Notes under the pieces: generated by a model
Told to the model about the DNA's origin: nothing
Seen by the model: the letters and a program-made list of their open reading frames with translations, nothing else
The model's database searches: none
Made by a program: the position numbers and the translations under genes
Shown: in pieces, positions 303 through 5,802 of the stretch
How the letters are laid out: each line of letters begins with the position of its first letter
Position numbering within the stretch: position 1 is the stretch's first letter
Source: a virus
Taxonomy: Duplodnaviria > Heunggongvirae > Uroviricota > Caudoviricetes
Reading direction: 5' to 3' (one strand)
IMG/VR virus record: IMGVR_UViG_2663763413_000005
DNA length: 5,802 bases

Positions 303-542
303 ATGAAATCACGCGCAGCAGTCGCCTTCGGGCCGGGTTTACCCCTTGAAATTGTTGAAATTGATGTGGCACCGCCGAAGAAAGGTGAAGTGCTGGTGAA
401 AATCAGTCACACCGGGGTATGCCATACCGATGCCTACACGCTTTCCGGTGATGATCCGGAAGGTCTGTTCCCGGTGGTGCTCGACCATGAAGGTGCCGGG
501 GTGGTGGTTGAGGTCGGTGAGGGCGTGACCAGTGTGAAACCT
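303..542 (+). pseudogene. frmA: S-(hydroxymethyl)glutathione dehydrogenase / class III alcohol dehydrogenase, N-terminal ~80 codons only (3'-truncated remnant)
   Basis: ATG at 303 is preceded by AGAGGA (288-293). Translation [80 protein letters not shown] matches the N-terminus of E. coli FrmA/AdhC as I recall it. The match ends at about 542; the frame then runs on to 635 through unrelated Ala/Phe-rich sequence that is the antisense of the stf remnant. The track ORF start at 234 is an upstream alternative start. Confidence 0.7.
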
Positions 543-1000
543 GCGCTGTTAGCTGCGTTCGTTTCTGAGGTTTTCGCCGCGTTCTTCGATGATGCCGCTG
601 CTGTTTCGGATTTCTTTGCCGCCGCTGCGCTCTGAGAGGCGGCTTCAGCGTTGCGTGCCGCTTCTTCCACCATTTCCTCAAAACGACGCAATGCCTCCGG
701 CATGACATCATCTTCCGTCATGGCACCGAGAAAATCATTCAGCGTCCCCGGCTTAGAATCTTCATACACGGTGATGGTCCCGGCATGTGAAGGCGGAAAA
801 CCTTCAACCAGCAGGATAACGCTGTACTGGCCATACTCAACATCCATGCTGTAACGCCCGGCTTCATCCGGATTTTCAGAGGCCACCGTGTTCACCAGTA
901 CCGTGGTGCTGTTACGCTTTGCCTTCAGTTGAATAGTGCAGTTCTGTATTGGTTTTCCCGCACCATCTTTCAGCACACCTGAGATTTTTACTGCTGCCAT
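540..1000 (-). pseudogene. stf: Side tail fibre protein Stf, N-terminal ~150 codons only (3'-truncated); the ORF reads on into antisense frmA-like sequence to a stop at 434
   Basis: ATG at 998-1000 (minus) with GGAG five nt upstream. Translation MAAVKISGVLKDGAGKPIQNCTIQLKAKRNSTTVLVNTVASENPDEAGRYSMDVEYGQYSVILLVEGFPPSHAGTITVYEDSKPGTLNDFLGAMTEDD… matches the N-terminus of lambda Stf (orf401), followed by the Ala/Ser-rich repeat region. Similarity stops around …[12 protein letters not shown] (about 540-555). The remaining 33 codons ([17 protein letters not shown]…) are the reverse complement of the frmA-like gene. Confidence 0.75.
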
Positions 1001-1011
1001 ATCCACTCCAC

Positions 1012-1038
1012 AAAAAAGCCCGCCTGAACCGGCGGGCT
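1012..1038 (-). terminator. Rho-independent terminator downstream of lom (minus strand)
   Basis: Minus-strand reading is AGCCCGCC-GGTTCA-GGCGGGCT followed by TTTTTTG: an 8-bp GC-rich stem (plus 1017-1024 / 1031-1038), 6-nt loop and T-tract (plus 1012-1017), placed between the lom stop (1065) and the stf start (1000). Confidence 0.6.
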
Positions 1039-1064
1039 GTCATAACACTGTGTTACCTGGCTAA

Positions 1065-1664
1065 TCAGAACTTATAACCGACACCCACGATGAAACCGTC
1101 AGTGCGCCAGTCACCACTGCCGGAGCCTTCATAAGCAATATCAATGGCCACGGATTCGGTCGGGTTAAACTGCACGCCAGCTCCCCACGCCAGAGACGTG
1201 TTGCTGTGGCGACCGTCATCACTTCCGGTCAGCACATCGTGCGTTTTCCCCTTGTTGTCAGTTACGCGGAGGTAATCCCCGGAAAAAGTCGAAACACGGC
1301 TGTAAGCCATACCCGCCATCGCATACGCGCTGAACCATTCATTCACGCGCACAGACGGCCCCGCCATCACGCTGAACCAGCGGTTACGCACGGAATCTTT
1401 ATGCCAGCGGGTATCGCTGTAACGGGTCAGCTGACGATTCTTGTATCCTGCATAACTGAATGACGTCACCAGCCCCAGCGTGTCCGTAAATTCATAACGG
1501 TATTTCACGTTAATGCCCTTCAGGTCATCACTGCCTGGCATATCAGTATGGGTCTGAAGATACCCGGCGCTTAGTGTGGACTGATGCTCTGCTGCGCTCG
1601 CTGGCGTACCAGCGGCAACCAGCCAGACTACTGCGGACAGAATAACAGCACATAATTTACGCAT
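1065..1664 (-). CDS. lom: Lom outer-membrane protein (Ail/Lom/OmpX/PagC family 8-stranded beta-barrel), intact
   Basis: 199-aa ORF with ATG at 1662-1664 and GAGAGG Shine-Dalgarno 6-7 nt upstream. Signal-peptide-like N-terminus MRKLCAVILSAVVWLVAAGTPASA, C-terminal …GFIVGVGYKF ending in an aromatic residue as in outer-membrane beta-barrels. Near-identical over most of its length to lambda Lom as I recall it. Confidence 0.92.
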   Translation of the reverse strand: MRKLCAVILSAVVWLVAAGTPASAAEHQSTLSAGYLQTHTDMPGSDDLKGINVKYRYEFTDTLGLVTSFSYAGYKNRQLTRYSDTRWHKDSVRNRWFSVMAGPSVRVNEWFSAYAMAGMAYSRVSTFSGDYLRVTDNKGKTHDVLTGSDDGRHSNTSLAWGAGVQFNPTESVAIDIAYEGSGSGDWRTDGFIVGVGYKF

Positions 1665-1688
1665 AATTACCTCTCGCTTTTCTGCAAT

Positions 1689-1712
1689 AAAAAAGGCGTC
1701 ATTTCTGACGCC
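1689..1712 (-). terminator. Rho-independent terminator between J and lom (tJ-like), minus strand
   Basis: Minus-strand reading is GGCGTCA-GAAA-TGACGCC followed by TTTTTTATTG: a 7-bp stem (plus 1695-1701 / 1706-1712), 4-nt loop and T-tract (plus 1689-1694), lying between the J stop (1732) and the lom start (1664). Confidence 0.7.
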
Positions 1713-2828
1713 CGTATTGGGGTTATAAAATTCAGCTGATACTGATGCCTGCAGTGGCTTTCTTCATCACAACAACCAGCAAATCGCTGATACTTGCTGT
1801 GGGATACCAACCATTTACCCACCATGCTGATACAGAAAACTCCAGTGTCATTACACCACTGCCTGCAGGCATATCAATAACACCCGTGTAAATCAGAGTA
1901 TTATCCAGAGCCGTTCGGTTATAAATTTCAGCCCCGTTTTTCTTCACTATCAGGCGGCATGACGAATAAGTATCGCTATTCTCCCGCTCATGTCTGGCAC
2001 CGCAGAAAGCCACCGCTGGAATAACAATTTGCCGGTCAAACGACTGATCGTCATAAACCCTGACGGTAATAGTCCCTGATGGCCACCGCTCCGGTGCACG
2101 GGAGTCCCGGGGGAAAGCTTTGCCCACTGTTTTAACGAGATCGCCTTCAATCTGGTTCGCGGACAGTTTTCCCAGAACCCGACAGTTCTCGTTAATCGTG
2201 ACATTATTGAGCGTCCCGGAGTTCGCATTCACGTTACCGCTGATATCGGCATTTTTCGCCGTCAGCCGCCCGTCCGGTGTCAGGGAAAATACCGGAGGAT
2301 TGCCGCCACTGGTAATGGTGGGAGCCGTCAGATACTTCAGGAACACTTCGTTCATGAATATCTGGTTGCCCTGCGCCACAAACATCGGCGTTTCATTCCC
2401 GTTTGCCGGGTCAATAAACGCGATACGGTTAGCGGCAACCAGGAACTGGCTCAGTTTGCCTTCCTCCGTATCCTCCATACTAAGGCCAAGCCCCGCGACA
2501 TAATGCCTGCCGTCTTCGGTCTGCTCAATTTTGACGCCCCACATGGCATTCCATTTATCGTTGGCGTCCTTCCACTCTTTCGAAAACTCCTCCAGTTTGC
2601 TGGCGTTATCCTCCGTCAGCTCGACTTTTTCCAGCAGCTCCTTGCCGAGATGGGATTCGGTTATCTGGCCTTTGAAAAAATCCAGGTAACCTTCCGCATC
2701 ATCGCTCGGCTGACCAACAGCCTCCACGAATGCCGATTTGCCAACGGTGTTCACACTGCGGATATAAAAGTAATAATCATGGCCCGGTTTGATATTGATA
2801 CTGGCAGCTATCCAGTACAGCGCCGTAC

Positions 2829-2873
2829 CAAGATAGCGGGCTGTGGTCTCAAGATAGCGGGCTGTGGTCTCAA
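2829..2873. repeat. Perfect 21-bp tandem duplication (unit AGATAGCGGGCTGTGGTCTCA at 2831-2851 and 2852-2872)
   Basis: Read directly from the sequence. In frame within J, duplicating the peptide ETTARYL. Confidence 0.9.
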
Positions 2874-3210
2874 CCTGCCTGATATCGGTAATCCGCTTTT
2901 CCGAGAACCAGAACTCAAACTGTACCGTCGGATCATAAACCGCAAGATGCGGCGTGGCAGTTATCTGAAAATAGCCCGGCGTCAGCTCAATCCGCGACGG
3001 CGCTGCCGGTGCGGCAATCCGGAACGATACCGATGCCGGATCGCCCTGCTGTCCCCACGCATTTACCGCCCGGACCGTCAGCGTGTAACGCCCCAGCGCC
3101 AGTTGCCTGAAGCGGTATGTGGTTTCCGTCGTCCTGGCCGTGCTGACCAGCCGCTCACTGCCGTCATCCGCTGCCACGGTCAGGCGAAGCATAAAGCTCA
3201 CCCCCTTCAC

Positions 3211-3269
3211 CACCTTCGGCGTATCCCAGCGCGCCAGCACCTTCGGCGTATCCCAGCGCGCCAGCACCT
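3211..3269. repeat. Perfect 27-bp tandem duplication (unit ACCTTCGGCGTATCCCAGCGCGCCAGC at 3212-3238 and 3239-3265)
   Basis: Read directly from the sequence. In frame within J, duplicating the peptide LARWDTPKV. Confidence 0.9.
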
Positions 3270-3541
3270 GATACTCCCCGCTGTCTGAGGTGACTTCGGC
3301 AGTCAGGTGCTGCACCGCAGGCGGCGTGACACCATTCACCGTGCCGCTCTGGTCGCCGTCAAAGTGCGCCCCGTTATCCACGATGGCCTCTTTTTCCGGC
3401 ACATGCTGCACGGCGGTGATGGCATACGTGCCGTCGTCGTTCTCACGGATACTCACGCAGCGGAACAGGCGCTGGCGCAGCGTCGGCAGCTTCAGCCCCC
3501 ATACGCTGTATTCAGCAACACCGTCAGGAACACGGCTCACT

Positions 3542-3555
3542 TTTACCTTTACCTT
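3542..3555. repeat. Short 6-bp tandem repeat (TTTACC x2 plus partial), encoding a KVKVKV run in J
   Basis: Period-6 identity over 3542-3555. Protein reads [12 protein letters not shown], where lambda J as recalled has [10 protein letters not shown]. Confidence 0.6.
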
Positions 3556-3652
3556 CACGCCGTCGGTGACGGACTGAACCTCCACGCTGACCGGATTGCC
3601 ACTTCCGTCAACCAGACTTATCAGCGTGGTACCGGAGGATGGCAGCGTGATT

Positions 3653-4225
3653 TCACGGTCGAGCGTCAGCGTCCGGGTCTGGCTGTTCACCGCCAGCCAC
3701 GCGCCCGCCGATGCTGATACCCGCATAGTCATCATCACAGATTTCAATGACATCCCCCGGTACATGGCGAAGCCCTTCCGCACCCACGCTGAAGTCCACG
3801 GTCTGCGTTTCCAGCAGTTCCGTTTTAATCAGCCACAGCCCGGCGCGGTGCGCCTGCCCCCGGCTGGTACAGCCAAAGGCATCCATCTTCGTGACGTTAC
3901 GACCGTAACGGGCAATGGCCTGCGTATCTTCAACAAGCTCTGTCGCCGTCTCCCAGCCGTTGTTCGGGTCAATCCAGTTCACCTCAACGGCATTATGGCG
4001 GTCCTTCAGGGCGCTGAAGCTGTAGCGGAACGGCGCGCCATCATCCGGCATCACCACATTACTGCGGTTATAGGTCCACACCTTATCTGATGGTCGGTCC
4101 TGCACGAACGTCAGCGTCTGCCCGTTCCATACCGGCATACAGCGCATCGCCGAGCAGAAATCACTGAGCACATCCCACGCCTTGCGCTGTGTGGTCAGCC
4201 AGGCATTACAGGTGATGCGCGGCCT
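3653..4225 (-). pseudogene. J: J fragment 2 (middle), in the +1 frame relative to fragment 1
   Basis: Part of track ORF 3653..4330. Translation from PRITCNAWLTTQRKAWDVLSDFCSAMRCMPVWNGQTLTFVQDRPSDK… through …[22 protein letters not shown] matches lambda J, then runs out of frame ([14 protein letters not shown], stop at 3653). Confidence 0.8.
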
Positions 4226-4247
4226 CATTACAGGTGATGCGCGGCTC
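4204..4247. repeat. Near-tandem direct duplication: 20-bp unit CATTACAGGTGATGCGCGGC twice (4204-4223, 4226-4245) separated by CT; net 22-bp insertion
   Basis: Read directly from the sequence. Located inside J and coincides with the first frame break. Confidence 0.9.
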
Positions 4248-5204
4248 CGTGCCACCAAAGCCATCCGGCACCGACTGGTCGCAATTCTGGCCGATGACAT
4301 ACAGCGCCCATTTGTCCACATCCGCCGCACCGAGACGCTTCCCCATGCCGTAGCGCGGATGGGTCAGCATATCCCACAGACACCAGGCCATGTTGTTGCT
4401 GTATGCTGGCTTAAACGTTCCGTCCCAGATACCGCTGTATTGTCGCGTCTGCGGGTTATAGTTCGACGGCACCTGCAGAATGCGCCCGCGAAGATGATAA
4501 TTACGACTCACCTGCTGGCTGCCGAACTGCTCCGAGTCCACCTGTACGCTGACCAGTGCCGTGTTCGGGTAGCACTGTTTCACATCGATGATTTCGGTGT
4601 ATGACGACCAGAGCGTTTTGTTCTGCAGCTGGTCTGTGGTGCTGTCCGGCGTCATCCTGCGCATCCGGATATTAAACGGGCGCGGCGGCAGGTTATCCAC
4701 CACCACCGAGGCCAGATACTGCGAGGTGGTTTTGCCTTTAATGGTGATGTCTTTTTCCGTCACCCAGCCACCGTTACGCTGTATCTGAACCAGCAGGCGG
4801 ACTTCCGACGGATTCCGGTCCCCCTTTGAGGTGGTTTCCACCAGTGCCTGCACACCGAAGGTAAAGCGCAGACGGTCGATGTTTGCAGACGTGATGGTCC
4901 GGGTAATCGGCGTGTCGTACTTCACTTCCGTACCCAGCACCGTCTCGGAGCCGGAGGATTCAAATCCCTCCGGCGGTGTCTGCTCCTGCTCACCTGCCCG
5001 GAACACCACCGTGACACCGGAGATATTGGTATTCCCCTCACTGTCCAGCACCGGCGTACTGTTCAGCAGCACACTTTTTAATCCGTCCACCGGACCTTCA
5101 ATCGGCCCTTCACTGATGGCGTCTATCACGCTCAGCATCTGGGATGATTTCAGGTTGTCCTTCGCTTCGCGCGGGGTATGCCCCTTACTGCTGCCTTTAC
5201 CCAT
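4206..5204 (-). pseudogene. J: J fragment 1 (N-terminal, 332 codons), ending at a premature TAA created by the 22-bp duplication
   Basis: Track ORF 4206..5204. Translation matches the lambda J N-terminus up to …GGTEPRITCN, then reads EAAHHL and stops. Confidence 0.85.
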
Positions 5205-5226
5205 TCCTCACGCTCCAGAAACGACA

Positions 5227-5246
5227 AAACCGCCCTGAGGCGGTTT
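5227..5246 (-). other. Inverted repeat / hairpin in the I-J intergenic region (possible weak terminator or RNA structure)
   Basis: Plus strand AAACCGCC-CTGA-GGCGGTTT (8-bp stem, 4-nt loop). On the minus strand it is followed by TTTTGTCGTTTCT, which is only moderately U-rich, then the J Shine-Dalgarno sequence. Confidence 0.3.
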
Positions 5247-5264
5247 CACACAAAACATTCTGCA

Positions 5265-5802
5265 TCAACGACCAATCACCACAACCTGACCACCATCTCC
5301 TTCATCTGCCGTGCTGATCTCCTGCGAAATCACCCGTGACCCCACGCGCATTTCACCGTACAGAACCGGCAGAACATTGCCCTGGGCAACCATGTTATCC
5401 AGTGAGGAGAAATAGGTGTTCTGTTTGCCGTTATCCGTTGTCTGTGTACGGGGAGTTCTGGCTTTCGGTGCCAGCATCTGCGCCACACCACCGAGCACCA
5501 TACTGGCCCCCGCACCATACATTCCTGTAATTGCGGCAGCCCCCAACCAACCTGCAGGGTTCCACCATGCCACCGCAATCAGCGCCGCCCCCAGCACACT
5601 GCCTGAAAAAGACCGCCACTTTTGGCTCCCGCCAGACGCGGCACAATGTGGATCACGGCACCATTTGCCAGCGGTTCATTAAGACGGGCGGATAATTCAG
5701 TTTCACCTGCATCACGCCCGGCAATACGTACCTGATACCAGCCGTCGCTCAGTTTCTGACGAAACGCCGGAAGCTGTGTGGTCAGCGCCCGGACTGCTTC
5801 GG
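5265..5802 (-). pseudogene. I: Tail assembly protein I, 5' end outside the window, with a frame break near 5598-5606
   Basis: From the window end, one minus-strand frame reads EAVRALTTQLPAFRQKLSDGWYQVRIAGRDAGETELSARLNEPLANGAVIHIVPRLAGAKSGGLFQ and then hits TGA within a few codons. The I-like sequence continues in a different frame as VLGAALIAVAWWNPAGWLGAAAITGMYGAGASMVLGGVAQMLAPKARTPR…VVIGR (track ORF 5265..5597). Both halves match lambda I as recalled. Confidence 0.8.

Follow-up and report, generated by a model that had tools for sequence, protein, structure and literature searches.

What could place four short tandem duplications within about 1.4 kb of a single phage tail gene? The original prediction had reported units of 6, 21, 27 and 22 bp in the J gene, three of them perfect, and had offered as candidate explanations relaxed selection on a dead prophage gene, a local peculiarity of replication or repair, and an assembly or consensus artefact. 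A TRF search and an exact-period scan of the DNA bore out the sizes and the coordinates, and also that three of the four duplications are perfect; the 22-nt event is imperfect and includes a CT filler. Our results indicate that the duplications are very probably errors of draft-genome assembly and not mutations that occurred in the bacterium. Almost certainly, then, they are not a real genomic feature and are uninformative on the biology of the prophage.

The contig and its insertions

The window, that is, the whole stretch of DNA that was analysed (5,802 bp), is the complete contig AOQJ01000313.1 of the draft assembly GCA_000397385.1 (2013), whose contig numbers run to at least 313. Its first 541 bases are 99.8% identical to tet(D) modules found on many plasmids. 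On the plus strand they carry the 3' end of the tetracycline efflux gene tet(D) (1-208), truncated by the contig end, and downstream of it a 5' fragment (the first 239 nt, 303-541) of an adhC/frmA-like class III alcohol dehydrogenase gene. The remaining bases, 542-5802, are a lambdoid prophage tail region lying on the minus strand. Here we found the N-terminal part of the side tail fibre gene stf (542-1006), identical to that of E. coli UPEC132, where it is annotated as a prophage tail fiber N-terminal domain protein; an intact lom gene (1065-1664) for an Ail/Lom outer membrane protein of 199 aa, with 0 differences from UPEC132; the lambda-type tail tip gene J (1732-5204), present as three ORFs (4206-5204, 3653-4330 and 1732-3783); and the tail assembly gene I (5265-5802), which is truncated by the contig end and split by a 2-nt insertion.

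Pfam searches with the three J ORFs detected the FNIII-A_GpJ, Phage-tail_3, Ig_J, Ig_J_second, Phage_Tail_Tip and Ig_GpJ_C domains. Thus, both the gene order I-J-lom-stf and the domain architecture of lambda gpJ/TipJ are present in the window, as seen from Pfam and from the UPEC132 annotation of the identical DNA. With the insertions removed, the window J is the 1131-aa J of UPEC132; what separates the two are inserted bases and nothing biological.

Alignment of bases 542-5802 with UPEC132 showed that the two sequences are identical except for six insertions in the window (21, 27, 6, 1, 22 and 2 nt, adding 79 nt), with 0 deletions and a single substitution; the scores of the window against 11 further complete genomes were equal or nearly equal. 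The sole substitution of the phage part is at position 5690, where the window has G and the reference T (A->C on the gene strand). In the reference, J is intact, with 3,396 nt and 1131 aa, and it has the same nucleotide length in all close references.

Five of the six insertions lie in J. At 2829-2873 there is a perfect duplication of 21 bp (unit CAAGATAGCGGGCTGTGGTCT), with two copies plus three matching bases (CAA) at 100% identity; it is in frame and adds 7 aa, so that the peptide ETTARYL appears twice. The 27-bp duplication (unit CACCTTCGGCGTATCCCAGCGCGCCAG; 3211-3269) is likewise perfect, with two copies, five further matching bases (CACCT) and 100% identity, and it adds 9 aa in frame (VLARWDTPK twice). 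The third, a perfect duplication of TTTACC at 3542-3555, also in frame, has two copies and two matching bases (TT). The other two insertions in J shift the reading frame: a single C at 3697 (C to CC, by comparison with UPEC132), and a 22-nt insertion at 4204-4245, made of a 20-nt copy of CATTACAGGTGATGCGCGGC and the CT filler, which gives an imperfect repeat of period 22. It is because of these two frameshifts that J is split into three ORFs. We considered whether the copy with the CT filler is a mixed-in paralogous J allele and rejected this, as no natural allele has the filler sequence. The sixth insertion, of 2 nt, is in gene I at 5599-5600, again by comparison with UPEC132. The +1 at 3697 and the +2 at 5599-5600, together with a chimeric join at 541|542 that is described below, go beyond what had been noticed originally.

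Perfect tandem units of at least 10 nt are expected 0.007 times per window by chance, and the largest unit seen in 300 dinucleotide-preserving shuffles was 10 nt; the 21- and 27-bp duplications are therefore far beyond chance. The original prediction had seen no duplications elsewhere in the window. Strictly, this does not hold, since small perfect repeats of 5-9 bp occur at 346-363, 2789-2800, 3662-3673 and 4980-4991. Their number, however, is near chance level and they are shared with the references. Three of them lie in the phage part (from 542), where the reference does not differ, and are thus native; the 9-bp repeat at 346-363, inside adhC, also matches the tet(D) reference modules.

Six more J alleles, with identities as low as about 91%, have none of the insertions. 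We then placed each of the three large duplication junctions in the middle of a 40-nt probe. The probes gave 0 matches among 5,426 complete E. coli genomes and none in IMG/VR; the 21- and 27-bp junctions had no match in the GTDB species representatives, nor did the 27-bp junction in the JGI metagenomes. The ORF products that depend on the insertions were found on the window contig alone, and no Logan or other contig has them. In the same line, the 7-aa and 9-aa repeats are absent from the best 120 J homologues. Some of these homologues (P0018-P0020 and P0031) were considered as carriers of the window duplications and were rejected: theirs are different and much larger. Note that the J of CYDZ01000083.1 (P0018/P0019) contains a unit of about 190 aa twice, with several residues differing between the two copies, and looks as if two paralogous J alleles had been stitched in tandem.

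Judged by this sequence comparison, the insertions would have come as a burst that solely added sequence, and slow decay of a dead gene is ruled out, because J has five insertions and zero substitutions relative to UPEC132, with none of the insertions common to another genome.

The chimeric join and the sister assemblies

Alignment of both parents placed the boundary between the tet(D)-adhC module and the prophage stf gene at 541|542. The join is blunt, without an IS element and without microhomology. An IS26 boundary was considered for this point and rejected, because in the reference tet(D) modules adhC runs on well beyond the window breakpoint. Similarity searches found no other record that spans 541|542, so the join is private to the window contig. 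The adhC fragment also carries a private G to A change at 484, which puts Asp in place of the conserved Gly in the zinc-ligand motif GHE; the position is G in 58/58 close tet(D) modules, and the change is probably another consensus error.

Using a 110-aa fragment of gene I as the query, we found the same prophage in AOQN01000031 (GCA_000397465.1), AOQL01000047 (GCA_000397425.1) and CATKVN010000001 (GCA_949813115.1), the last an independent contig of 5.3 Mb. AOQN and AOQL were taken as belonging to the same submission batch as the window because their accessions are adjacent. All three are colinear with UPEC132 in the prophage. Neither the six insertion junctions nor the tet(D)-stf junction of the window is present in AOQN, AOQL or CATKVN, and the insertions are absent from UPEC132 as well; all four sequences have the single-copy form of the five J sites. 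The AOQN J is intact, encodes 1131 aa and is 100% identical to that of UPEC132, and in AOQN, AOQL and CATKVN alike stf runs uninterrupted across the position of the window breakpoint.

The sister assemblies have lesions of their own. Compared with UPEC132, AOQN has two 2-nt insertions and 0 deletions. AOQL has private perfect duplications of 27 bp in the tail gene U, of 28 bp in J and of 27 bp in sitD, a chromosomal gene for an iron/manganese permease, and its J has in addition a 48-nt stutter that consists of a 29-nt copy, an 11-nt partial copy and 8 nt of filler (the duplications and the stutter are at 3186-3242, 12247-12302, 12450-12497 and 19352-19405 of AOQL01000047.1). AOQL further differs by five insertions of 1-3 nt, 0 deletions and 12 substitutions, of which 7/12 are A->C, the type of the window substitution at 5690. 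Over the approximately 45 kb examined of the three AOQ assemblies, insertions outnumber deletions by 18 to 0 (p = 8e-6).

Gene I is a further case in point. Here a +2 lesion is found in the window (5585-5615), in AOQN (~9985) and in AOQL (~9543-9552), differing from one assembly to the next but always inside the same 15 nt. Three differing +2 lesions at one site point to a systematic technical error and not to an inherited mutation. At the same site CATKVN (~9990) has lost one T from a T5 run, and the position looks prone to systematic sequencing error. Note that this site is also naturally A/T polymorphic among J-I alleles.

The effect may extend to the ribosomal genes. The 16S rRNA of E. coli is about 1,542 nt long. 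In a preprint, the AOQL 16S rRNA entry (AOQL01000076.469.2061) was the only outlier among 948 E. coli sequences, and its coordinates span 1,593 nt. From this span, the entry probably holds inserted sequence too.

Some further features of these sequences were observed. CATKVN010000001.1 has 22 gap openings (23 gapped bases, nearly all single-base) in 20 kb. Z, I, J and the genes for the tail assembly chaperone and the tape measure are split by them, and the contig has the appearance of a long-read assembly that was not polished. At the UPEC132 locus the sitABCD operon (iron/manganese transporter, 4942-8391) adjoins the prophage tail fibre genes (8604-12809), with an icd fragment nearby. In UPEC132 stf is annotated in several broken pieces; AOQN is colinear there and has one 799-aa gene called. 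The Ala/Ser/Lys-rich part of stf has imperfect tandem repeats of 42 nt and 189 nt, with 78-84% identity (AOQN 15042-15556; UPEC132 11842-12290), which are native, genuine and common to all relatives.

Origin of the insertions

The lesions of the window occur in this one assembly alone, its same-clone sisters lack them, and the batch has insertion-only lesions at other loci. The comparison thus favours the artefact among the candidates named originally. The original prediction had also posed a general assembly property as a refutation test, and this test came out positive in AOQL, from the same batch. Relaxed selection on a dead gene fared badly: apart from the insertions J is 100% identical to an intact J of conserved length, and therefore there was no time for decay; in addition, the insertions are shared with no genome, the same-clone assemblies included, and one of these has the intact J. 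A replication or repair peculiarity local to J is contradicted by the AOQL duplications, since lesions of the same class are found there in gene U and in the chromosomal sitD.

How could an assembly produce such lesions? We infer the exact software step as follows. Neighbouring pieces, either short contigs or gap-closing extensions, would truly have overlapped by about 1 to 30 bases. If such pieces were abutted end to end and not merged, each short overlap would be written twice. The outcome would be insertions only, mostly perfect two-copy repeats, all of them below the usual threshold for merging, while errors at the ends of the pieces could give the untidy junctions (the CT filler, the +1 and the +2). 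The blunt tet(D)-adhC/stf join would be the same stitching step acting on two unrelated pieces. The pile-up of lesions in J could be accounted for too, as the multi-copy lambdoid tail region would be where a short-read assembly fragments most. An E. coli genome has lambdoid tail genes at a median of 2 places, with a maximum of 15, and these genes are mosaic; because they are multi-copy and mosaic, short-read assemblies fragment in them, and lesions would then cluster in J.

An artefact of assembly should add sequence and never lose it, should recur at unrelated loci of the batch, host genes included, should be accompanied by other signs of misassembly and should be private to one assembly. As expected, sequence was gained in all 18 cases and lost in none; the lesions recur in U, J and sitD of AOQL, with the 16S rRNA entry as an outlier; the chimeric join, the three +2 lesions at one site and the excess of A->C changes occur alongside them; and the lesions are absent from the same-clone assemblies and from the complete genomes. 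Furthermore, sizes of 27-28 nt recur in two assemblies, which points to a software constant.

One property departs from this pattern. A blunt duplication should show flanking identity at the level of chance, but the three perfect duplications of the window have 3, 5 and 2 flanking matches, which exceeds the expectation for blunt concatenation (p ~0.0008), as do the 13 matches over six batch events (p ~0.002). Such an excess is in keeping with slippage of a polymerase, or with a joining step that is satisfied with very short matches at the ends, and because of it an amplification artefact of the laboratory and real mutations each retain a small probability. A specific de Bruijn model was also tested, in which allele-specific contigs overlap by 2(k-1)-s and the duplicated unit lies at a constant distance from the variants; with the six available alleles there was no clear sign of a constant distance between the unit and the paralogue variants, and some J alleles have variants inside the duplicated units. 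Duplication of primer sites by tiled PCR, suggested by the primer-like sizes of 21-27 nt, was rejected, as it leaves the 1-, 2- and 6-nt events and the sister lesions unexplained.

The flanking matches could point to an artefact introduced in the laboratory before assembly, by template switching during whole-genome or library amplification, which could have entered the consensus where coverage was very low. Such an origin would explain the microhomology at the duplication junctions, the chimeric joining of unrelated DNA in the same contig, the very short contigs with ends inside unique genes, and the variation of the lesions between libraries of the same clone. We consider it very unlikely nonetheless: template switching also yields deletions and inversions, whereas the batch has insertions alone; the chimeric junction itself lacks microhomology; errors of single molecules rarely win the consensus; and the recurrence of 27-28 nt in two assemblies argues for software. 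The same matches could be read as traces of real mutation in vivo, either replication slippage at short direct repeats of a prophage gene now free from selection, or a burst of template switching in one repair event. Indeed, the 21-, 27- and 6-bp units are head-to-tail copies bounded by direct repeats of 2-5 bp (CAA, CACCT, TT), above chance, three duplications keep the frame, and J is non-essential for the host. Real slippage products should, however, be inherited and belong to a normal mutation spectrum, and here no event is common to any genome, the same-clone sisters included, one of which has an intact J. The mutation spectra of E. coli normally hold more deletions between short repeats than duplications, and zero deletions were seen; the five insertions in J stand beside zero substitutions, which leaves no time for gradual decay. 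Moreover, AOQL has different private duplications, one of them in sitD; neither the CT filler nor the 48-nt stutter is what clean slippage would give; and the implied density of one event per 1-5 kb would be lethal or not viable genome-wide. Mutation in the bacterium is thus, in our opinion, very unlikely indeed.

A biological role for the repeats has less still in its favour. J determines host specificity, and three of its insertions keep the reading frame, as might be expected from adaptive or programmed diversification, through in-frame repeat expansion or a diversity-generating system. But two frameshifts destroy the gene in the window contig, and the best 120 J homologues lack the repeats. 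As for a diversity-generating retroelement, the signs looked for were not found: the window has no second copy of the region, the genes identified in it do not include a reverse transcriptase, and with zero substitutions in J there is no adenine-directed mutagenesis. Since AOQL has the same class of lesion in unrelated genes, we give this explanation next to no weight. A further proposal, that the AOQJ, AOQL and AOQN isolates truly carry private bursts of microhomology-flanked tandem duplications, seems highly improbable to us. If it were true, this would be the signature expected of a defect in flap processing (of the Pol I 5'-nuclease type) or of clustered template switching in repair, and the isolates would represent a clone of E. 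coli from nature whose mutator phenotype yields duplications alone.

Related duplications and significance of the finding

Real tandem duplication mediated by microhomology and generated by replication slippage is known from E. coli lacI spectra and from flap-endonuclease mutants. The window duplications resemble those events in being head-to-tail copies bounded by a direct repeat of 2-5 bp. Unlike them, they are private to one assembly, insertion-only and spaced once per 1-5 kb, whereas real events are heritable, rare and accompanied by deletions and substitutions.

Returning to assembly error as the preferred reading, a closer likeness is found in the false 'homotype' tandem duplications, which in vertebrate assemblies arise from overlapping sequence at contig boundaries (PMC8081667). 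In both cases there are two exact, adjacent copies of a single locus where assembled pieces meet, or would meet; sequence is only added; and a better assembly of the same genome lacks the duplications. There are also differences: the units in the batch are of 1-28 nt, compared to roughly read length in the vertebrate case, and here they lie inside a bacterial contig without a gap marker, several of them with 2-5 extra edge matches.

Other E. coli drafts offer a second comparison. BDKD01000147.1 (903-1429, 2115-2463 and 3036-3280) and BDHT01000034.1 (4728-5051, 5895-6260 and 7819-8172) have perfect two-copy duplications in the J-lom-stf region. As in the window, the same multi-copy tail region is affected, with several perfect 2.0-copy duplications in a few kb and an occasional one-base filler. 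In contrast to the window, the units are of 123-264 nt, they show no flanking microhomology and they come from different projects. To judge from their sequences, these duplications are likely to be products of the assembler in a multi-copy region.

Were the duplications of the window real, they would point to an uncommon process of mutation that yields duplications alone; the evidence speaks strongly against this. What they mean concerns instead the reading of these genomes. Insertions in the form of short tandem duplications, along with frameshifts, are present in the window contig and, among its sisters, at least in GCA_000397425.1, and the window contig has a chimeric join as well. Such lesions could be misread as decay of the prophage, as pseudogenes or expanded repeats, or as a new context for the tet(D) resistance gene beside phage DNA. 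The value of the finding is therefore that of a quality flag: conclusions at the level of genes or variants that are drawn from these assemblies need checking against reads or better assemblies.
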